Below, piece after piece: positions 2,904 to 23,646 of a stretch of 23,646 bases of DNA (its first letter is position 1; every line of letters starts with the position of its first letter). Below the pieces are notes generated by a model. The model was not told the DNA's origin. It did no database searches and was given only the letters and a program-made list of their open reading frames with translations. Position numbers and translations under genes: made by a program. This DNA is from an uncultured virus (IMG/VR IMGVR_UViG_3300046517_001084) (taxonomy: Duplodnaviria > Heunggongvirae > Uroviricota > Caudoviricetes), in IMG/VR virus record IMGVR_UViG_3300046517_001084. One strand, given 5' to 3'.

Positions 2904-4718
2904 TCACGCGGCTGCGGCCAGTTCTGGCTGCGTGTGGCGTTCGATGTCGTCGCCGGTGATTGCTTCGACGAGTGCGCTGACGATGACTTCGGCGCAGTTC
3001 GGGGTGACGGCATTGCCGTATTGGCGGACCTTTTCGCGCTTGGAGCCGAGGACTATGTACTGGTCGGCGAATGACATGGCCCGGCCGATCTCGTGGGGTT
3101 CGAGCATCCGGAAGCGGACGTCGGCGATGTCGACCTTGCCGTGGACGAGGGCGTACCGGTCGCGGGTGGACAGGGTGCCGATCGGCTCATGGACGGGGCG
3201 TGCCTGCCCGTTGCCGTAGTACGGGACCAGCAGGTGCTCCCAGGTGACCAGGGACTGGTGACCGGCGGTGGTGAGGGTGCGGAAGTACTCGTCTGCTGGG
3301 GTGCAGTGCTCGCCGCCGGGCCCGTTGCGGCTGCCGTTGTTCCGCATGACCATGGCCGGGATGTCGGGGGTGACGAGTCCGTGGTGGTTGCCGTTGGCGG
3401 AGACGGTGCCGAGGGCTTCGCGGATGGAGCGCCCGCGGAGCTGGTCGCCGCCGCCGCGCATGGTGACCATGAACGGGAGCCAGGCCAGGCCGGTTTCGTT
3501 GCGCGCGGTCTGGGTGCGCAGCGGGCTATTCGCGGTGGCGGGTTCTTTGCCGTCGCGCCCTTCGACGGGGATGAGCAGCGGCGGGATCGCGAGGCCGTCG
3601 TTCTCGCGGGTGGTGCGGCAGGCCATGGGGTCCAGGACGCTGGACGGGTCGTTGCGCCAGGTGCCGCCCGCCGGGACCATGAACGGCTCGTAGGCCATGG
3701 CCTTGGTCGGGGTGGTGGTCTGCGTGGTCAGGGGCGCGTCGACGGGCCAGGTCCGCACGCCGGGGCGCCGCTCGAAGGTGTTGCCCGCGGCTTCCAGGGT
3801 GATGGGGCGGGCGAACTTGTCGAGGCCGGCCTGGATGCGGGCGAGGGTCTTGTCGGCGAGGGGCTTGGGCCGGTCGCCGATGCGCTGGCCGGGCAGCGTC
3901 CAGTCGATGGCGACCGCTGCGGGGAGCGTCTCGGGTTCGAGGATCTGGCTTCGGCAGGCGGTGTTGGGACAGCGGTACACGTATTGCTGGCGGTAGCGGC
4001 CCATGTCGCGGCCGGGGGTCTTGAACCGCTGAACGGCTTGGACCCACTGGTCGCAGCCGGTGCACCAGGCGCGGGGGCGCAGCCACTTGTCCCAGTCGGG
4101 GGTGCGGCCCAGGCTGCGGTGCCAGTAGGCGACGTACAGTCGGTCCCTTGATTGCGGCGCCTTGTGGACAGTGCGGGGGTCGGCGTGCATCGAGTTCAGG
4201 GCGATGACGCGGGTGTCGTATCCGAGCTTTTTGATCTCGCCGATCCAGCGGTCCCACTGGTCCCAGGCGCGGACGTCGACGACGTTCTCGACGACGCCAG
4301 CCTTCACCAGCCCGCCGCGGCGTTGAACGCCCCGCAGGTACATGGGGACTTCCTCCATCAGCGCGCGGGAGCGTTCGACTTCCTCCGACGGGGCGAAGGC
4401 GTCGCCAAACAGGTCGCCCTGCTGGCTGGTGGCGAAGTCCCGCTTCTTGCCGCGCGCGTTGGACCACTGCGGGCACTCCGGGCTGGCCCAGAAGATGTCG
4501 GTGACGGGCCACTGCTCGACCGGGGCTTCACGGATGTCGCCGCGGTAATGGTCGACTTCGGGGAAGTTCGCGGCATGCGAGTCGATGGCCTTCTGCCAGT
4601 GGTTCGCGGCGCGTTCGACGCGGACGCCGGGGATGGCGTGCATGCCCTGCGAGCTGCCGCCGGCGCCACAGAACCAGTCCATGACGGTCAGTGCGTCGCT
4701 GTCGTTGCGGTACATCAC
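2904..4718 (-). CDS. DNA cytosine-C5 methyltransferase
   Basis: Motif I DWFCGAGG, motif IV SPEC, motif VI ENV, motif VIII QSRDRLY, motif X RQYGNAV. Confidence 0.92.
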   Translation of the reverse strand: MMYRNDSDALTVMDWFCGAGGSSQGMHAIPGVRVERAANHWQKAIDSHAANFPEVDHYRGDIREAPVEQWPVTDIFWASPECPQWSNARGKKRDFATSQQGDLFGDAFAPSEEVERSRALMEEVPMYLRGVQRRGGLVKAGVVENVVDVRAWDQWDRWIGEIKKLGYDTRVIALNSMHADPRTVHKAPQSRDRLYVAYWHRSLGRTPDWDKWLRPRAWCTGCDQWVQAVQRFKTPGRDMGRYRQQYVYRCPNTACRSQILEPETLPAAVAIDWTLPGQRIGDRPKPLADKTLARIQAGLDKFARPITLEAAGNTFERRPGVRTWPVDAPLTTQTTTPTKAMAYEPFMVPAGGTWRNDPSSVLDPMACRTTRENDGLAIPPLLIPVEGRDGKEPATANSPLRTQTARNETGLAWLPFMVTMRGGGDQLRGRSIREALGTVSANGNHHGLVTPDIPAMVMRNNGSRNGPGGEHCTPADEYFRTLTTAGHQSLVTWEHLLVPYYGNGQARPVHEPIGTLSTRDRYALVHGKVDIADVRFRMLEPHEIGRAMSFADQYIVLGSKREKVRQYGNAVTPNCAEVIVSALVEAITGDDIERHTQPELAAAA

Positions 4719-5530: not shown

Positions 5531-5817
5531 TGCTGCTGTTCTCCCGTCGGGTAGAGGGGCTGGATGCTGGCGGCGTACTGGTCGAGGTGGTGGTCGAGGA
5601 GGGCGAGTTCTTGGAGGGCGTCGGGTCCGTCGTGGTAGCGGCGCACGAGCGGGTGCTGGTTGCGGCGTGCTTCGGCCCGTTCGGCTCGTCGTTTGCGCCA
5701 GGTTCCGGTGGTGAGGTGGGCGGCGTACACGGCGCCTATGAGGGCGCCGAGGACCATGGCGGCGGGGACGTAGGGGGCTGCGGTGAGTGCCCAGCCGGCC
5801 ATGTCGAGGACGGTCAT
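5527..5817 (-). CDS. Hypothetical protein with N-terminal hydrophobic helix
   Basis: ATGA overlaps on both sides; AAMVLGALIGAVYAA segment. Confidence 0.7.
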   Translation of the reverse strand: MTVLDMAGWALTAAPYVPAAMVLGALIGAVYAAHLTTGTWRKRRAERAEARRNQHPLVRRYHDGPDALQELALLDHHLDQYAASIQPLYPTGEQQQ

Positions 5818-6629
5818 GTCATGCACCACCCGGAGTCGCAGTTGCCGTCGGACTCGTCGAACATCGGGAGCAGGTCGACGCCGTCCGGGATCGCCTCGCG
5901 CAGCGGCTTGTTGAACCGGGTCAGATAGACGTGGTCCTTGCCCAGTTCATCGCGCCGCCGGTTCAGCAGCTCTTCGAGCTGGCACGACTTCTCGAACAGC
6001 TCGGGCTCGTCGCGCCGCTGGTTGTGCCAGGTCTCCGGCCGGTGGAAGGGGCAGAAGTAGCAGCTGCTCTTCGGCGGTACCGGGAGTCCTGCGTCGCGGA
6101 TAATGCGGGCGCAGTCGGTGCGGCGCAGACCGAGGTCCAGCAGCGGGTAGGTGATGACCTCGTGCGGCTCGGTACGCCGGTTGTTGGCCCGGTGGATCTC
6201 ATCGACGGAGATCCCGATGCCTATGACGGCCGGGTTGGCGGCGGTCGCGCCACGTCGTTTCAGCTCGCGACCGATGACCTCGATCTTGTAGGTGGCTGTA
6301 CAGGAGCGCGTGCCCGGGGCCCCGTTGGACATCCGCACGGGGATCTTCAGGGACTTGGAGCCCTCCCGCGTCAGGTCCTGGAGCAGGGTCCGTGTCTCGC
6401 CGGTGCGCTGCATGATCCGGTCGAGGACGGTCAGCTCGATGCCGTGCTCGGCCGCGTAGGGCTTGGCGTACTCGTCGAGGTACTTGAGCGTGCCGGGGTT
6501 CTCGCTGTCGTCGCCGACGTTGGCCATGAGGAAGGTGCGGAAGTCGATGCGCTTCTGTGCGGCGAGGACGAGCAGCCCGGTCGACTGAACGCCTCCGCCA
6601 TAGCTGATGGACCGAAGCTCGCTCATCAC
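5814..6629 (-). CDS. PAPS reductase family (PP-loop) phage protein
   Basis: SYGGGVQST PP-loop, RSCT...KI, YPLLDLG, SSCYFCPF, C-terminal CDSGWC. Confidence 0.85.
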   Translation of the reverse strand: MMSELRSISYGGGVQSTGLLVLAAQKRIDFRTFLMANVGDDSENPGTLKYLDEYAKPYAAEHGIELTVLDRIMQRTGETRTLLQDLTREGSKSLKIPVRMSNGAPGTRSCTATYKIEVIGRELKRRGATAANPAVIGIGISVDEIHRANNRRTEPHEVITYPLLDLGLRRTDCARIIRDAGLPVPPKSSCYFCPFHRPETWHNQRRDEPELFEKSCQLEELLNRRRDELGKDHVYLTRFNKPLREAIPDGVDLLPMFDESDGNCDSGWCMT

Positions 6630-11046: not shown

Positions 11047-11793
11047 TCAGCAGATGACGAGCGCGGACAGACGGAGCGCGGCGGCCTCGGCATATGGTTC
11101 GTGGGCTTCGATCCCGATACCGCGCCGTCCCGCCTGACGGGCAGCGTCGAGGGTGCTGCCCGAGCCGGCGAACGGATCGACGACCAGGCCGCCCTCGGGG
11201 CACGCGTACTTGATCAGCGGATCGAGGATGCCGATCGGCTTCTCCGTCGGATGGACTGCCCGGTTGTTCATCGACTGCGCCGGGATGACCGATCGCATCA
11301 ACCTCGATCCGGTCTCCGTCCATCGCCGAGCAGCCCCGTAATTGCCCGTGTGCTGGGGCTGGCTGGTACGCACGGCGGATCCGTTGCGGGCGATCTGCGC
11401 AGCCGTTGCCTGGGTGCGTGGTGTCTCGTGGTGCACGTCGCCCCACGGCCCTCGGTACCAGTGCAGGGTGTGCTCATGGACCCGCCGAAAGCGGTCTGTC
11501 GTCGCGCCGGACCCGTTGCTTTTTTCCCAGACGAGGTCCTGGGAGAGCTTCCATGCCGTGAACTGGTCGCGGCGATCGAGGAACATGCGCATCGACCCGA
11601 AGCACCACATCGACGACGCGACCGTCGCCGCCAGGGTCGGCCAGCCATCCGGCCACCGATCCCAGGCGAGACTCGTCTCGGCATAGGGCGGATCTGCGAC
11701 CAGCAGATCGGCTGTGAGGTCAAGTGCCGGGATGACTTCGCGCATGTCGCCGAGGTACAGAGCGACTTGATCGTCTGCGTAGTACGGCTTCAT
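11047..11793 (-). CDS. DNA adenine-N6/cytosine-N4 methyltransferase, beta class
   Basis: Catalytic DPPY precedes HPTEKP and SAM-binding VVDPFAGSGST...GIGIE. Confidence 0.92.
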   Translation of the reverse strand: MKPYYADDQVALYLGDMREVIPALDLTADLLVADPPYAETSLAWDRWPDGWPTLAATVASSMWCFGSMRMFLDRRDQFTAWKLSQDLVWEKSNGSGATTDRFRRVHEHTLHWYRGPWGDVHHETPRTQATAAQIARNGSAVRTSQPQHTGNYGAARRWTETGSRLMRSVIPAQSMNNRAVHPTEKPIGILDPLIKYACPEGGLVVDPFAGSGSTLDAARQAGRRGIGIEAHEPYAEAAALRLSALVIC

Positions 11794-18364: not shown

Positions 18365-18808
18365 ATGCTGCATGTCACCTACAGAGCCGTCGACGACCTT
18401 GAGCCCGGCAGACTCGCCCGAATAGACGAGGCCCGCGGGACGATCAGGATCCGCCTCGACAGGCGCGAACCACTCAAGGATGTAGTCCGGCAACTCAACA
18501 CCGAGATCGACGACCTCATGGCTCTCGCGCGCTGGTTCCAGCTGTGGGATGACGAGATCGTCGGCCGCGACACGCCGGGGTCGCCCCTGCGCGTCGCATA
18601 CCTGCTCCACCTGGAACAGCCGAACGGCGCCATCATCGAGGAGAACAAGGGCCTCGTGAGCGTCCACATCGACCCCACCCTGAGCGTTGAACAGTTCGCC
18701 GCCGCCATGAACCCCGCCTCGGAGCTGTTCCTCGCCGGCGGCCGGTGGTTCCAGCTGTACGCCGGCGAGATCATCGATATCGGTATGGGGTCCGGGGTCG
18801 CAGCCTGA
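18365..18808 (+). CDS. Hypothetical protein made of two similar ~70-aa domains
   Basis: GGAGGG RBS; halves end in ARWFQLWDDEIV and GRWFQLYAGEII. Confidence 0.8.
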   Translation: MLHVTYRAVDDLEPGRLARIDEARGTIRIRLDRREPLKDVVRQLNTEIDDLMALARWFQLWDDEIVGRDTPGSPLRVAYLLHLEQPNGAIIEENKGLVSVHIDPTLSVEQFAAAMNPASELFLAGGRWFQLYAGEIIDIGMGSGVAA

Positions 18809-18822
18809 GTCAAGGGGGACCT

Positions 18823-20118
18823 GTGCCTGGCTACATCGAGGACCGCTGGTACAAGGCGGGTCCGCCCGACCCGGACGACCCGAAGAAGAGACCGACGCGC
18901 ATCCCGACAGACCTCTACAAGAAGTGCAAGCAGTACCGGGTCTGCGGGATCCCGGGGGTCCGCAAGCGGTCCTTCGACCGCAAGACCGACGCCGTGACGT
19001 GGATGACGAAGGTTCAAGGGGACCTGCTCCGCGGCGAGTTCGTAGACCATCGCGACGGCGTGATCACCCTGAGCGAGTATGTCGCCAAGGAGTACTGGCC
19101 CACAAAGACGGGCGACCCCGGGTCTCTCCAGACGATCGAGACGTGCATCAACGTCCGCATCCTCCCCTACCTCGGAGCGCAACGCCTTAACGCCATCAAG
19201 GTCCCGCAACTGCGTAAGTACCTCGCCGACCTGGACGGGCAGTACGCGCCCGCCACAATCATCGATGCATGGAGCTGGCTCTCGTCGATCCTGCAAGCCG
19301 CAGTGGACGACGAGCGCATCCCCCGCAATCCGTGCTTGGCCAAGACGATCCGGCCGCCGGCCCTCCCGGAGCGTAAGGCGCGGGCCTGGGCTCGGAGCCA
19401 GGTCATGGCGGTACGCGCTGGACTCGACGAACACCTGAAGGTGACGGTCGATCTCGGTGTGGGTGCCGGCCTGCGGCAGGGCGAAGTACTCGGCCTGTCC
19501 ATCGATGACATCGCCGAGGAAGTTATCCACGTTCGCCGCCAGGTCCGCATCGTGAGGAACCGGCAGGTGTTCTCCTTGCCCAAGGGAGGGAAGACGCGGA
19601 CGGTTCCGCTGCCCACCCATCTGGCCGAGCGCATCAAGGAGCACGTCAGGCGGTTTCCGCCCGTCGAGGTCACGCTCCCGTGGACCAATCCGGCGCCGCC
19701 GGAGAACGACAAGCAGGCCGCCGAGCGGGCCCCCCAGACGCACCGATTGCTCGTAACGGGCGAGAAGCGCCAGGGCGCGCTGCGCCGGAGCGTGTTCGGC
19801 AGCGGGCCGTGGAAGCGGGCGCTGGTGGCGGCGGGGGTGATCCAACCGCCGCCGAAGCGGACGCGCACGCCTGAGGAGAAGGCGCGTGGGTACCGGCCGA
19901 ACACGAAGCATGCCGCCGCCCGGGACGACGGCTTCCATGCCCTGCGGCACACGTTTGCTTCGGTTCAGCTGGATGCGCGGGAGTCGGTGGTGGCGGTCTC
20001 GAAGTGGCTGGGCCACTCGGATCCGTCGATCACGCTCAGGATCTATGCGCACATGATGCCGGAAGCGGACGGCCGCGGGCGGGCCGCGATGGACGCGTGG
20101 TTCGCAGGCGATTCGTAA
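18823..20118 (+). CDS. int: Tyrosine integrase
   Basis: GLRQGEV (R), PKGGK (K), HALRH, WLGH, TLRIYAH (Y); GTG start with AAGGGGG RBS. Confidence 0.96.
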   Translation: MPGYIEDRWYKAGPPDPDDPKKRPTRIPTDLYKKCKQYRVCGIPGVRKRSFDRKTDAVTWMTKVQGDLLRGEFVDHRDGVITLSEYVAKEYWPTKTGDPGSLQTIETCINVRILPYLGAQRLNAIKVPQLRKYLADLDGQYAPATIIDAWSWLSSILQAAVDDERIPRNPCLAKTIRPPALPERKARAWARSQVMAVRAGLDEHLKVTVDLGVGAGLRQGEVLGLSIDDIAEEVIHVRRQVRIVRNRQVFSLPKGGKTRTVPLPTHLAERIKEHVRRFPPVEVTLPWTNPAPPENDKQAAERAPQTHRLLVTGEKRQGALRRSVFGSGPWKRALVAAGVIQPPPKRTRTPEEKARGYRPNTKHAAARDDGFHALRHTFASVQLDARESVVAVSKWLGHSDPSITLRIYAHMMPEADGRGRAAMDAWFAGDS

Positions 20119-20120
20119 AC

Positions 20121-20392
20121 GATCTCCCTGGCTGCTCCCTGACGGTTAGACTCTGCGGCGAGGGAATAGCTCGGTAGCAGGTGGGACGGCCCGAATCTGG
20201 GTACAGCCTGCACACCGTCTTCCTGTGGACCGTGCGGCTACGGCACCTGCTGAGATGCCGACCAGCCTCGCCATCATGCCCCTGAAGTGCAGAGATGAAG
20301 CGAGACGAAGAGAGACGAGTGGAGACGGGTGGATAGATCCAGTGCCCCCTGAGTACTCCCTGAAGGCCTGGCGCACCCTGAGTCCCCCCTGA
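20121..20392 (+). other. attP-like site: seven 11-bp arm-type direct repeats and four 10-bp repeats around a central core region
   Basis: GATCTCCCTGG/CTGCTCCCTGA (20121-20142), CATGCCCCTGA (20275), GTGCCCCCTGA/GTACTCCCTGA (20342-20363), GCGCACCCTGA/GTCCCCCCTGA (20371-20392). Confidence 0.8.
20291..20330 (+). repeat. Four 10-bp tandem repeats (putative Xis/RDF sites)
   Basis: AGAGATGAAG CGAGACGAAG AGAGACGAGT GGAGACGGGT. Confidence 0.75.
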
Positions 20393-20439
20393 GAATGGCC
20401 GCCGGAAGGGGCGCCTCACCTGCTGGAACGCCTCACGCT

Positions 20440-20685
20440 TCAGGCTACTCCGCGCCCTCGTGAATGAGGTCCCGGCTGGTACTCGGTTCCGGTGCGCGCA
20501 GACTCCTCGCGCCTTATGTCCTCCATGGCGATGACGCACTCCTTGCAGGCGCGGACTTCGTGGTCGCCGTCGGAGCGCGGATGGATGACCCCGACGACCG
20601 CGGTGGGTACGGCGCCCCGGGAGGGGTGCCTGAAGCAGGTCCCGTCTGCCCAGTCGTAGAGGTCGAGGATCTCCTGGCGGTCCAT
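20440..20685 (-). CDS. Small putative Zn-binding protein (MDRQEILDLYDW...)
   Basis: GGAGAG RBS; CFRH...CKEC. Confidence 0.75.
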   Translation of the reverse strand: MDRQEILDLYDWADGTCFRHPSRGAVPTAVVGVIHPRSDGDHEVRACKECVIAMEDIRREESARTGTEYQPGPHSRGRGVA

Positions 20686-20789
20686 GCTCTCTCCCGTGCT
20701 CTGTGCTGGCTGGGCAGTGCGGGGGGCTGTTCCCTGGTTCCCGCTGTTGTCAACGGGATGCAAAGTCCCGGGGTTGTTCACACGATCGA

Positions 20790-20805
20790 GTGAACAACCG
20801 TTCGA
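20790..20805. promoter_or_regulatory. Putative LexA (SOS) box
   Basis: GTGAAC-AACC-GTTCGA versus the actinobacterial consensus TCGAAC-N4-GTTCGA; just downstream of a minus-strand TACTGT -10. Confidence 0.6.
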
Positions 20806-20968
20806 TTTGAGGACAGTATCGGGAGCCCTGTGGCATATGCCAGAGCGCCTCAGGGCTGTCCGGATCCGCGCCACTCGGAAGAGGGTGAACGTCGGACGCT
20901 GCTCAAGATCGAAAAAAGCATGCCCCCATAGGCTGACTCAAGATCGTTAAGGCATAACCGTTTGCTGA

Positions 20969-21202
20969 GTGCCACGCGAACCCGACCCCGACTGGATCCT
21001 TCAGAGACGCCAAGCGGTCGGGAACCGCGTCCGAGCCCACCGCGAGGACGCCGGCCTAACGCAGGAACGCCTCCGCGACCTGACCGGCGTCGAGCGCCTC
21101 ACGATCCAACGCATCGAATCCGGAGCTACCGACGCCCGACTGAGCTGGCTGTTGCGCATCGCTGACGCTCTTTGCATCCACGTGCGTGACCTCCTCGGCT
21201 AG
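20969..21202 (+). CDS. XRE-family HTH regulator
   Basis: VGNRVRAHREDAGLTQERLRDLTGVERLTIQRIESG...LLRIADAL. Confidence 0.9.
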   Translation: MPREPDPDWILQRRQAVGNRVRAHREDAGLTQERLRDLTGVERLTIQRIESGATDARLSWLLRIADALCIHVRDLLG

Positions 21203-21440
21203 GCGGCCGCGCTGGGGGCTGGGCCGGAGTTACGTGATTGAACCAATCACTTCCGCCAAGCGGAAGTGATTTGCGTGCCTGTGCAACCGTCGGACGCTCA
21301 GGCGCTTCAGCAGCGAGTGCCCTTACATCGGACACCCAACCCTGCCTCGCATATGCCAGCAGGGGAAGGGTGCGTGCGTGACCATTGCACAATGCGTCGG
21401 TGTACTCCGCACGCACGGGGTGTGCGATGGTGACGAAACG

Positions 21441-21614
21441 TCAATCCTTGGCCTGAGCTGCGGCCTTCGCGGTCGGCTGCCGGTTGGGCCACCGGTCCCG
21501 AGTGTGCCAGTTGTAGTGGTCGCCGCCGTGCCCCGGCTGCTCGAAGCAGCGCACTCCGCGGAGTCCGGGCTGCTTGGCCCAGCAGTGGCCGGGCATCCGG
21601 TGCTCGTCGTTCAC
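21441..21614 (-). CDS. 57-aa protein with C-x11-C-x5-H-x3-H motif (not in ORF track)
   Basis: VNDEHRMPGHCWAKQPGLRGVRCFEQPGHGGDHYNW...; GTGA overlap with the upstream gene. Confidence 0.6.
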   Translation of the reverse strand: MNDEHRMPGHCWAKQPGLRGVRCFEQPGHGGDHYNWHTRDRWPNRQPTAKAAAQAKD

Positions 21615-21832
21615 GCCCACGGGGACACCACCACCGTGGTCGGCTGGTCGGTCACGTAGTACAGGGGCTTGATGCCGCGGTCCGACGCGCAGGCCGCGTG
21701 GGCGAACACAGGCCTCGGTGTCCCGCTCGCCATACCAGCCAGCCGAATGCAGCAGTCGGCGCCCATCTTGTCGCAGTAGGTGCAGCTGTGCAGCTCTTCG
21801 CGGGCGGGTGTGGTTTCCCTAGAATCTGTCAT
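21611..21832 (-). CDS. Small putative Zn-finger protein
   Basis: CTYC...HAAC; AGGGGG RBS; divergent from GntR. Confidence 0.7.
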   Translation of the reverse strand: MTDSRETTPAREELHSCTYCDKMGADCCIRLAGMASGTPRPVFAHAACASDRGIKPLYYVTDQPTTVVVSPWA

Positions 21833-21910
21833 GGCGGTGCCCCCTACGGCGTCGTCCACGCCCCGGGCCGTTCACGCGGTCGCGGGGCTTACTCTGTTCA
21901 GGCCAGATTA

Positions 21911-21974
21911 GCGCGATAGGTGCGATAGGCGAGATAGACGTACACATCTCGCCCAGTACGCCTACCCCGCCTAG
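21911..21974. promoter_or_regulatory. Array of 9-bp repeats, putative GntR operator
   Basis: GCGCGATAG GTGCGATAG GCGAGATAG, then inverted degenerate copies up to the TAGCGT -10. Confidence 0.6.
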
Positions 21975-21984
21975 CGTCGCAATC

Positions 21985-22227
21985 ATGGATTGGCAGCCAG
22001 AAATCCCCAGGTGGCGGCAGGTGTACGCCCTGCTGGAGCAGCGCATCTACGACGGGATCTACCCGCCGGGTGAGCGGCTCCCGTCGGCCCTCGCCTTGGA
22101 GAAGGAAGTCGGCATCAGTCCGGTGACGGCGCGGCGGGTGCTGAAAGAACTGCGGGACGCCGGCCTCGCGTACATGGAGCCGGGCATCGGCACGTTCGTG
22201 TCACGTCTGCCGGAGAAACCGAAGTGA
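21985..22227 (+). CDS. GntR-family winged-helix regulator (DNA-binding domain only)
   Basis: WRQVYALLEQRIYDGIYPPGERLPS...L....GIS..TARRVL.EL...GL.....GIGTFV; TAGCGT 7 nt before ATG suggests a leaderless transcript. Confidence 0.92.
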   Translation: MDWQPEIPRWRQVYALLEQRIYDGIYPPGERLPSALALEKEVGISPVTARRVLKELRDAGLAYMEPGIGTFVSRLPEKPK

Positions 22228-22242
22228 TCGGCGCCATGCCCA

Positions 22243-22265
22243 TTGTCAGTGCCCGGCAGTAGCCT
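22243..22265 (+). promoter_or_regulatory. RecA-NDp/PafBC-type DNA-damage promoter
   Basis: TTGTCAGTG-8nt-TAGCCT, 6 nt before ATG 22272. Confidence 0.75.
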
Positions 22266-22271
22266 TGATCC

Positions 22272-22451
22272 ATGCCCCCAACCCCTGCCGACCCCGGTTC
22301 GGCACGCCCCGCGTCGGTGATCAATGAGGAGATCCGGGCGCTGGTTGAGGCGGGCGGCCTCGGGTCGGACGCGTATTTGCGGCTGCTGGTGGAGTGGGAG
22401 GCCGCGGTGCGCGCCCAGGGTGTGCGGGGCGATGTCAGACCCGCCGCTTAA
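22272..22451 (+). CDS. 59-aa hypothetical protein (MPPTPADPGSARPASVINEEIRALV...), not in ORF track
   Basis: Open frame starting at a leaderless position after the promoter motif; amphipathic helices. Confidence 0.7.
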   Translation: MPPTPADPGSARPASVINEEIRALVEAGGLGSDAYLRLLVEWEAAVRAQGVRGDVRPAA

Positions 22452-22454
22452 GAT
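22433..22454 (+). promoter_or_regulatory. Second RecA-NDp-like promoter
   Basis: TGTCAGAC-8nt-TAAGAT, 8 nt before GTG 22463. Confidence 0.55.
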
Positions 22455-22462
22455 CCCGGCTC

Positions 22463-22696
22463 GTGGCGATCAAACTCTCTGACGAATTGATTGAGCTGGA
22501 ACGCAGAGCTGTGGCGGCAGCCGAGGCAGCCCGCGGGGTGCCGTATTCGACGGAGGCGTGGCGGCCGTGGCTGGACGCCGCGGAGGCGGTACAGGCTGCG
22601 GTGACGGCGCACGCTGCGGCGACCGGGCAGAACCGGTTCGAGGTGGAGGCCGAGCTGAAGCGCATCGTCCGGCACCCTGAGCCAGAGGACGGCTGA
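22463..22696 (+). CDS. Small helical hypothetical protein (VAIKLSDELIELERRA...)
   Basis: C-terminal part of ORF 22394..22696; start placed by the promoter motif. Confidence 0.72.
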   Translation: MAIKLSDELIELERRAVAAAEAARGVPYSTEAWRPWLDAAEAVQAAVTAHAAATGQNRFEVEAELKRIVRHPEPEDG

Positions 22697-22697
22697 G

Positions 22698-22880
22698 CTA
22701 CAGCGCGGACTGGAACGCGGACGCGGACGGCACGTTGCCTGCGGTCGCGGTGACGCGGTCGAGCGCGGCCGGGACGTGGCCGGCGTGCTGGGCTGCGGCC
22801 CGTTCGGTGAGCGTCGGGCGGCGGCCGGTCGCGGCCGGGACGGTAGTGCGGGCCGCGGCGGAGACGAGCATCGTGGTCAT
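22698..22880 (-). CDS. FxSxx-COOH-type RiPP precursor-like peptide
   Basis: 60 aa ending ...PAALDRVTATAGNVPSASAFQSAL-stop; CACAAT -10-like hexamer 5 nt before ATG. Confidence 0.72.
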   Translation of the reverse strand: MTTMLVSAAARTTVPAATGRRPTLTERAAAQHAGHVPAALDRVTATAGNVPSASAFQSAL

Positions 22881-22978
22881 GGCTCATTGTGCACCGGCAG
22901 CACCCCGCCGCGAGCGCTGTCCCGCGACGGGGCTACCGGCAGCAATCCCCGGCTGTGTAGATGCCGTTGATGCGATCC

Positions 22979-23001
22979 ACGATACGGGCGGGCACTGACA
23001 A
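22979..23001 (-). promoter_or_regulatory. Third RecA-NDp/PafBC-type promoter, facing the FxSxx gene
   Basis: Minus strand TTGTCAGTG-CCCGCCCG-TATCGT. Confidence 0.72.
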
Positions 23002-23012
23002 CAGCGGGTCGC

Positions 23013-23426
23013 TCAGCACTCCCACCAGGGTTTGCTGGAGGCGGCGCACACGGCGTTCCTCGCCGCGCCCTGGGTGTCCAGGTCGAGGATGGTTTGCGCC
23101 TTTGCCCGCATCTCGGGGGTGAAGCAGTTCGGGTTTTGGAGTACGAGGTTCATCGCGGTCCGCTGCGAGCTGGCGCTGTCGGCGGCCCCCGCTTGGGCTT
23201 GCTTCATCATGTCGTCGCCGGTCTGGATGATGGCCGCGCAGTCTGTCGCCTGGGCCGGAGCCTGCTTCGCCTCGGGTGCGGTGGCGCGGCCTGCCCAGAA
23301 GGCGATACCGAGGGCGGCTGCCGCGACCATGACGAGCCCAATGGCCATATGGCGGCGGGCACGTCGGTGGGGGTCGTTGTCCGTGGTGTGGTCGTCGGCT
23401 TCGGGCTCATCGGCGCTGTCCGTCAT
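23013..23426 (-). CDS. Single-pass membrane protein with a small Cys-containing outer domain
   Basis: GAGGGGG RBS; RRARRH then MAIGLVMVAAAALGIAFWAG; four Cys. Confidence 0.75.
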   Translation of the reverse strand: MTDSADEPEADDHTTDNDPHRRARRHMAIGLVMVAAAALGIAFWAGRATAPEAKQAPAQATDCAAIIQTGDDMMKQAQAGAADSASSQRTAMNLVLQNPNCFTPEMRAKAQTILDLDTQGAARNAVCAASSKPWWEC

Positions 23427-23466
23427 GGTCCCCCCTCGGGATGTGGAGCAGCAGGATACGGGCGGG

Positions 23467-23607
23467 TCAGTCGGCCTGCTTGGTGTCGGTCGGCTTGGTC
23501 TTCCGGGCGGGGACGAAGCGGTTGACGCGGTAGACGTGAGCGGCCCATCCGTCGGCTACGACCTTCTCGTGCTCTTCGAGCGTCTTGGCGCCGCATTTGC
23601 AGTTCAT
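23467..23607 (-). CDS. 46-aa hypothetical protein MNCKCGAKTLEEHEKVVADGWAAHVYRV...
   Basis: GGAGG RBS upstream of ATG; GC-rich third positions. Confidence 0.6.
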   Translation of the reverse strand: MNCKCGAKTLEEHEKVVADGWAAHVYRVNRFVPARKTKPTDTKQAD

Positions 23608-23646
23608 GGTGTTCCTCCATGGGTGTTGTTGGGGCGGGGGCCCCCC

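Follow-up and report, generated by a model that had tools for sequence, protein, structure and literature searches.

A phage-borne FxSxx-COOH-type precursor gene with an upstream DNA-damage-type promoter motif and no adjacent maturase

The window examined here is a stretch of 23,646 nucleotides from an uncultured virus of the Caudoviricetes (IMG/VR record IMGVR_UViG_3300046517_001084). Based on Pfam and PHROGs matches, it represents the early and lysogeny region of a temperate phage, with genes for a DnaC-like loader, a replication initiator, C5 and N6/N4 methyltransferases, RecT, a RecE/YqaJ exonuclease and helix-turn-helix (HTH) regulators. The subject of this report is a short gene in the accessory region, whose product ends in SAFQSAL (Table 1). 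The original prediction, made from the letters alone, had taken this gene for an orphan precursor of the FxSxx-COOH type, a class of peptides made on the ribosome and modified after translation (RiPPs), and had proposed that the phage uses it to manipulate the Fxs machinery of its host.

Table 1. Features of the accessory region around the peptide gene (aa, amino acids; nt, nucleotides).
Feature	Position	Strand	Remarks
Tyrosine integrase	18745..20118	+	PF00589; phrog_1, 3.1e-47; marks the lysogeny module, which borders the accessory region with the peptide gene
Cro/CI-type HTH regulator	20969..21202	+	homologues PF01381; PHROG regulator matches
GntR-type regulator	21985..22227	+	PF00392, 3.9e-15; same accessory module
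Second RecA-NDp-type promoter	22244..22265	+	6-nt gap from the end of its -10 to the ATG of the 59-aa gene; leaderless geometry
59-aa protein	22272..22451	+	no function assigned; first gene of the convergent operon, downstream of the 22244..22265 promoter
77-aa protein	22463..22696	+	no known family; convergent, stop 1 nt from the peptide-gene stop
fxsA-like orphan precursor gene	22698..22880	-	60 aa; ATG start, TAG stop; C-terminus SAFQSAL-COOH
Conserved block TGCACAATGAGCC	22881..22893	-	abuts the ATG; contains CACAAT (22886-22891)
RecA-NDp-type (PafBC-type) promoter motif TTGTCAGTG-N8-TATCGT	22979..23001	-	~98 nt upstream of the peptide ATG
Predicted membrane protein, 137 aa	23013..23426	-	upstream of the peptide gene; 40% identity homologue at the same place in prophage L006

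The peptide's C-terminal sequence is ...PAALDRVTATAGNVPSASAFQSAL, and its open reading frame (ORF) has a G+C content at third codon positions of 0.94 in a window of 68% G+C. An antisense ORF (22735-22998, plus strand) uses the same third positions, and composition therefore cannot choose between the two frames. A homologue search of a 5.8-billion-protein collection at a threshold of E≤10 gave 65 matches among 72 candidates, with lengths of 57–79 aa; the named ones were Streptomyces without exception, and three carry the UniRef name 'FXSXX-COOH protein'. Fifty-six of the 65 matches were aligned, the omitted nine being mostly Logan contigs of <2.3 kb (P0002, P0005, P0009, P0018, P0024, P0025, P0041, P0051 and P0058). 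Residues P51, S54, A55, F56, Q57, S58 and L60 are invariant across this alignment and A59 is conserved at ≥90%. The terminal FxSxx motif on which the prediction turned is thus conserved, with F-Q-S kept by all 56 sequences and every full-length homologue ending in F-Q-S-[A/S]-L (FQSSL instead of FQSAL at four loci).

The codons were then compared across 37 distinct 3' ends from 40 genomic copies. Invariant residues are coded by varied synonymous codons, including TCN<->AGY switches at serine, and the stop codon varies between TAG and TGA. This synonymous variation at invariant residues indicates that selection acts on the protein in the peptide frame; the same pattern excludes the antisense ORF as the true gene, as well as a conserved non-coding or att element. 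Judged by its codons and homologues, the 60-aa ORF is a real, translated gene under strong purifying selection, and the original observation of this frame ending in SAFQSAL holds.

The peptide bears an F-x-S-x-x-COOH terminus (F-Q-S-A-L-stop) on a small product, and its family was assigned through related hosts. In a first set of five Streptomyces genomes carrying family members, FxsB (model TIGR04269) was found above cut-off two to three times per genome in all five. In four of them, tblastn located a small ORF ending ...VPGTSAFQSAL or ...VPAASAFQSAL directly upstream of the long form of FxsB; in the fifth (G004), the hit beside FxsB was a weak match to TIGR04268. One such locus (L042) reads, in order, HTH regulator, FxsA paralogue, FxsB-HExxH, FxsC and FxsT, with the stop of the paralogue 20 nt before the FxsB start. 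This FxsB is fused to an alpha-ketoglutarate (aKG)-HExxH hydroxylase (585 bits to TIGR04269 and 181 bits to TIGR04267, mod_HExxH), FxsC combines a TIR-like N-terminal domain with a C-terminal domain, and FxsT combines a KGGVGR-type ParA-like ATPase with the FxSxx-system TPR protein. The TIR-like FxsC and NTPase-TPR proteins named in the original prediction as parts of such loci are present in the host loci.

The window peptide is 53–58% identical to the FxsB-adjacent SAFQSAL peptide (E about 1e-7) and has the core SAFQSAL in common with it. The likeness extends to the leader, which reads LVSAAERP..RRLPLVKRAAAQSAGKAPASLTRVMT in the paralogue, can be aligned to that of the window peptide and shares with it LVSAA, R-x-P-L, RAAAQxAG and L-x-R-V. 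In related hosts the paralogue immediately precedes FxsB-HExxH/FxsC/FxsT, and for this reason the window peptide was read as an FxsA-type precursor. By context and homology it is a member of a narrow FxsA lineage with its ancestral place beside FxsB, so that the FxSxx-COOH identity originally proposed is supported by these two lines and not by a family model. PHROGs gave no match for the peptide; five other family members and the cluster-linked paralogue matched no family in NCBIfam (0 at E≤0.01), Pfam or PHROGs, and the loci of the peptide family were absent among the 150 matches listed in a genome search with TIGR04268.

Five further host genomes carry 3–6 family members each, and in all five one member lies 47–48 nt before a long FxsB match. 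Host genomes with an FxsB-adjacent family member thus number nine of ten by alignment, the tenth (G004) by the weak match. In an even sample of 301 Streptomyces genomes, the peptide family was present in eight and FxsB above cut-off in 194; the peptide gene lay within 53 nt upstream of FxsB in all six single-copy genomes of this sample. Each family-positive genome examined has one family member beside FxsB, again counting G004 by its weak TIGR04268 match, and the survey of hosts for fxsB and fxsC loci was accordingly positive, every host of the relatives carrying a cognate FxsB-HExxH/FxsC/FxsT locus.

Other Fxs loci were encountered in the same genomes. A second locus (L040) encodes an FxsA ending ...ATFNSAI, FxsBH, an AAC(3)-like protein, FxsC and FxsT, and adjoins a gene (L040:4781-5854, minus strand) for a two-domain SLATT protein (NF033610 and NF033634) of the conflict-system membrane effector type. 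The sole peptide over the TIGR04268 cut-off in the five genomes (L041:3905-4111; 36.2 bits) is followed by a short FxsB and by an HExxH hydroxylase encoded separately; it carries SAFTSAL followed by eight further residues before the stop, so its FxS is not C-terminal.

The relatives of the window peptide in viral records define where in a phage genome the gene resides. IMG/VR contains four full-length relatives. One of them, a 31-kb metagenomic viral contig (L044), agrees with the window to either side of the integrase. Its late side runs through tape measure, tail proteins, endolysin, holin, minor tail protein and invertase to the peptide gene, and onward to the genes for the 77-aa and 59-aa proteins, a GntR regulator with 98.75% identity to the window's, an 82-aa gene, HTH, tyrosine integrase, regulators and DUF6197. 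In L043 and L046 lysis genes likewise precede the peptide gene. A prophage in a Streptomyces genome (L006) carries tail genes, endolysin, holin, a collagen-like fiber, the homologue of the 137-aa membrane protein, the peptide gene and the 77-aa gene, and ends in a large serine recombinase followed by host genes. The peptide gene therefore occupies the same slot, between lysis/tail genes and integrase, in L044, L043, L046 and L006, and this slot is common to phages whose integrases differ in type (tyrosine for L044 and L046, serine for L006); the window covers just the integrase side of the arrangement. By this position outside the core modules, and with promoter motifs of its own, the peptide gene is best described as a temperate-phage accessory (moron) gene. 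Host DNA beside a prophage was rejected as its source, given the phage genes on both sides in L044.

No radical SAM family was found by Pfam in 47 ORFs of the window, whose assembly contigs end at base 23646, in agreement with the original observation that no maturase lies beside the gene. The survey for maturase-less phage homologues was also positive, with no FxsB match at E≤0.001 in any of the four viral records, three of which are proviruses with 99–100% estimated completeness. GenBank phages gave no match by megablast of 20000-23646, by tblastn of the peptide or by tblastn of the canonical FxsA from L040, and PLSDB plasmids gave none.

Transcriptional signals were assessed with the pattern TGTCAGTG-N8-TAnnnT, which we take to be the RecA-NDp consensus attributed to Gamulin et al. 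2004. The window contains it twice versus 0.02 expected, and 0 of 100 shuffles reached two. The match upstream of the peptide gene (22979-23000, minus strand) is extended by a T at 23001 and is exact to TTGTCAGTG-N8-TAnnnT, which bears out the upstream DNA-damage-type promoter of the original prediction. Among ten distinct phage or mobile copies of the gene, six have the motif at a similar distance (the window; L006, with a G variant; L021, identical to L045; L024; L028; L044). The motif was found in 0 of 27 chromosomal or other copies, unlike the window gene. Closer to the start codon, a CACAAT..CC.ATG core is kept in nine of ten aligned phage or mobile copies despite unrelated sequence further upstream (L044 differs). 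A near-identical block precedes the ATG in three chromosomal copies of class II (see below), and class I copies have instead a hairpin and a GGAAGG ribosome-binding site. The -10 claimed for the gene survives as CACAAT in the conserved block, a plausible candidate for a leaderless or near-leaderless mRNA, with its promoter function kept as putative. Scans of 22100-23200 for sigma-70 promoters and intrinsic terminators gave none, and Rfam had no match in 21800-23646.

The meaning of the motif was examined in a complete related Streptomyces genome (G001), with the reversed motif as control. There were 31 matches versus one for the control (loci L048-L077), and most of the 29 downstream ORFs start 6–7 nt after the -10. 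The genes concerned include recA, a radA-like gene, uvrB, ruvA, two recD2-like helicases and dnaX, as well as AlkZ-like and uracil-DNA (UDG) glycosylases, MgsA and thyX. Based on these gene assignments, the RecA-NDp motif is a mark of a DNA-repair regulon in the Streptomyces lineage of G001, and the set looks like a PafBC-type regulon. The window shares the exact motif with RecA-NDp/PafBC promoters, and its 59-aa/77-aa operon has the leaderless 6-nt geometry typical of the G001 regulon. The peptide gene departs from most regulon members in having its motif ~100 nt upstream, a leader that is conserved and, at the ATG, another candidate -10.

Orphan copies outside phages were surveyed with one genome per species, giving 33 loci in 15 Streptomyces genomes that were grouped by common neighbors. 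Class I (15 loci) occupies a conserved chromosomal site adjoining an MFS_3 exporter; class II (7 loci and one copy in L011) lies between catalase and HAD hydrolase genes; the mobile class (5 loci and one copy in L011) has the window's neighbors, namely the 59-aa, 77-aa, 82-aa, HTH and 144-aa genes; and five other loci have various contexts. A Pfam scan of ten representative loci, covering 110 of 155 ORFs with short overlapping ORFs omitted, found no radical SAM family out to a distance of about 7 kb from the peptide gene. In a codon-aligned maximum-likelihood tree of 42 copies (the exact duplicates L045 and L042 dropped), the FxsB-linked genes split from all orphans (ultrafast bootstrap, UFBoot, 86/100), and class I was monophyletic (93), with the prophage copy L006 as its sister (89). 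The phage copies fell near the base, where the backbone is weak (UFBoot 42–67), and the tree therefore cannot order phage versus chromosomal orphans.

These results suggest a scheme in which the phage lends its host a precursor for the host's own enzyme. DNA damage, which is also a prophage-inducing condition, would lead the phage to make the fxsA-like precursor. Host FxsB-HExxH would recognize the retained leader and form a Phe-to-Ser cyclophane on the phage peptide, perhaps with beta-hydroxylation. The modified look-alike, or competition for the enzyme, would then manipulate the host Fxs locus, the likeliest aim being to keep an FxsC/FxsT abortive-infection system from firing during phage replication. 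An immune function of this kind is predicted in a preprint (bioRxiv 10.64898/2026.10.19.760177), which describes FxsC/FxsT as a TIR-ParA cell-suicide immune system and suggests that the FxsAB peptide could serve as an alarm signal or antiviral molecule. The expected ring is that made by MscB, an FxsB-type enzyme which, according to a review (PMC11002830), produces a Phe C4-Ser Cbeta cyclophane; another article retrieved (PMC12912966) deals with a different triceptide, and Fxs is unmentioned in it. That the phage precursor manipulates the host Fxs system via host processing is our leading, though tentative, reading, to which we give somewhat less than an even chance. Its more specific form, in which a damage-induced, maturase-less FxsA copy is processed by host FxsB-HExxH and silences or pre-empts the FxsC/FxsT TIR-ParA system as a counter-defense, is possible but doubtful. 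Expression on DNA damage, when prophages are induced as well, would suit counter-defense best. The strict core conservation in phage copies favors a functional product over the simple enzyme-titrating decoy that had also been suggested.

Several observations weigh against this scheme. The peptide matched 0 NCBIfam families at E≤10, including TIGR04268 (family cut-off 28 bits), so that the family model named for it in the original prediction does not apply at this threshold, and it had no match in Pfam. A profile comparison with the FNSA[IL]-type FxsA of the second locus in the same genomes was collinear and weak (probability 17.6%, E 0.0014). The damage motif is missing from three of the ten phage or mobile copies (L043, L026 and L011 copy 1) and lies 464 nt from the peptide gene in L046. 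The mycobacterial PafBC motif is stated in PMC9380542 (2022) not to have been found conserved in S. venezuelae. Orphan copies of classes I and II are conserved on host chromosomes, where they have no damage promoter, and being an orphan therefore does not in itself make a copy a phage weapon. Over their last ten residues, phage copies show conservation as strict as that of chromosomal ones, and this strict core, together with the chromosomal orphans, suits a functional extra precursor equally well. Finally, the immune role of FxsC/FxsT is itself a computational prediction in the preprint.

The extra-precursor explanation amounts to lysogenic conversion: the phage would supply more of the host's cyclophane peptide on damage, as an antiviral molecule or alarm, to the gain of the lysogen and its kin. 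It draws on the equally strict conservation of core and leader in phage and chromosomal orphan copies, on hosts that already use several remote precursors (3–6 copies per genome), on the moron position with its own promoters, and on the antiviral or alarm role proposed in the preprint. The damage promoter, however, ties expression to prophage exit, when protection of the host is least useful to the phage, and export or antiviral action of the peptide is an assumption; we regard this explanation as a serious rival, without thinking it probable. An FxsB-independent role, with the peptide acting unmodified, for example as a regulator or partner of the neighboring small or membrane proteins, and its likeness to FxsA a matter of ancestry, would agree with the absence of a nearby maturase, with the convergent 59-aa/77-aa operon that constantly accompanies the phage copies, and with the lack of a predicted terminator between the convergent genes. 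We consider it unlikely, since the peptide keeps the leader motifs that it shares with the cluster-linked FxsA, the F-Q-S core does not vary and every family-positive genome examined has a member beside FxsB (with G004 again by weak match). Furthermore, the 77-aa neighbor, with 55 homologues spread over numerous Streptomyces species, looks more widespread than the peptide family (8/301), and the operon as a dedicated partner of the peptide is not supported.

A passenger gene, acquired from a host by recombination and drifting in the accessory region, or host DNA beside a prophage, might be expected from the mosaic structure of the accessory region and from metagenome contigs that break or diverge around the gene. 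The shared lysis/tail-to-integrase slot in phages with tyrosine (L044, L046) or serine (L006) integrases, the phage genes on both sides in L044, the purifying selection with synonymous change in phage copies and the conserved promoter geometry all speak against it; the L044 synteny and the synonymous-codon pattern largely refute this reading, which we judge very improbable.

The manipulation reading can be set beside several known systems. Like FxsA/FxsB (TIGR04268/TIGR04269) and the related MscA/MscB of the triceptides, the system involves a peptide of ~60 aa with C-terminal F-x-S-x-x, and a paralogue of the window peptide immediately precedes FxsB in a locus that also encodes FxsC and FxsT. 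By analogy with MscA/MscB, the expected chemistry of the window peptide would be the Phe C4-Ser Cbeta ring of the review cited above (PMC11002830). Unlike FxsA/FxsB, the window peptide is unmatched by TIGR04268 and stands alone in a phage without a maturase. Prochlorosins offer a parallel in which remote ProcA precursor genes are processed in trans by one maturase, ProcM. FxsA-family precursor genes are similarly scattered away from a single cognate enzyme, at 3–6 copies per host; unlike ProcA, one lineage of the scattered copies is borne by phages or mobile elements and wired to the DNA-damage response. Phage mimics of host immune components include the pseudo-ToxI RNA of PhiTE, T4 Dmd and the Tad1 sponge. 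As with these, the phage would carry a look-alike of a host component to control an abortive-infection module; unlike these, the candidate mimic is a RiPP precursor that would first need the host maturase, and inhibition is here a proposal. Host loci pair FxsC and FxsT (KGGVGR ATPase, TPR) with FxsAB in the manner of the TIR-ParA systems of the preprint (bioRxiv 10.64898/2026.10.19.760177), as far as its accessible part describes them. That part contains no wording on decoys, mimics, counter-defense or anti-defense, and phage-borne copies were not searched for in it. A literature search, with supplements and subscription journals outside its scope, returned no report of a phage-encoded FxsA.

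What the window contributes is a direct tie between the peptide and a paralogue of identical core inside the Fxs cluster, the restriction to one host lineage, the synteny across phages and the wiring to DNA damage. The Fxs locus is common (FxsB in 194/301), and an immune role is predicted for it from domain architecture. A phage with the peptide substrate alone and damage wiring constitutes a natural experiment on the peptide's part as signal, antidote or weapon, one that bears on whether phages exploit host RiPP enzymes. If true, the scheme would represent counter-defense by a RiPP precursor hijacking a host maturase and would give a first functional handle on the Fxs peptide.

Among the neighboring genes, the leaderless promoter of the 59-aa/77-aa operon has identical spacing in L024, L026, L028, L043 and L044. 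Homologues of the 77-aa protein (55, in many Streptomyces species) are mostly 64–83 aa long. With no terminator predicted between the convergent stops in the scan of 22100-23200, overlapping transcripts of the peptide gene and the operon could regulate each other. The 137-aa membrane protein had no known family in Pfam or PHROGs.

Class I copies (L001-L005, L007, L008 and others) stand head-to-head with the gene of an MFS_3 transporter (PF05977, 'transmembrane secretion effector'), which is a possible exporter of the mature peptide. At L030:8417-8488, 1.5 kb upstream of an intact class II gene, lies a decayed extra copy, start-less and ending ARQSAL (Phe to Arg). At L011:10001-16111 an insert of ~5 kb (HTH, unknowns; mobile-type) is bordered on each side by a copy of the peptide gene with a HAD-hydrolase gene after it, an arrangement which reflects either duplication by an integrating element or an element with its own copy of the target site.

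In the early region of the window, the two DNA methyltransferases (one a C5 cytosine enzyme of 604 aa, the other of the N6/N4 type; 2904-4718 and 11047-11793, minus strand) and a protein resembling 3'-phosphoadenosine 5'-phosphosulfate (PAPS) reductase (5814-6629) have probable anti-restriction functions. No tRNA was found in the window. The window stretch was detected in soil and rhizosphere metagenome DNA runs, with no RNA run listed among them; contigs from four of these runs break and diverge around the peptide gene. In one run (X2), summed contig depth drops from ~32 to ~14 across the gene (22650-22980). Several contigs from other runs diverge within the same interval, one loose end at 22977 bearing an alternative damage-promoter motif, which suggests that related phages of the same soils recombine at the peptide gene.

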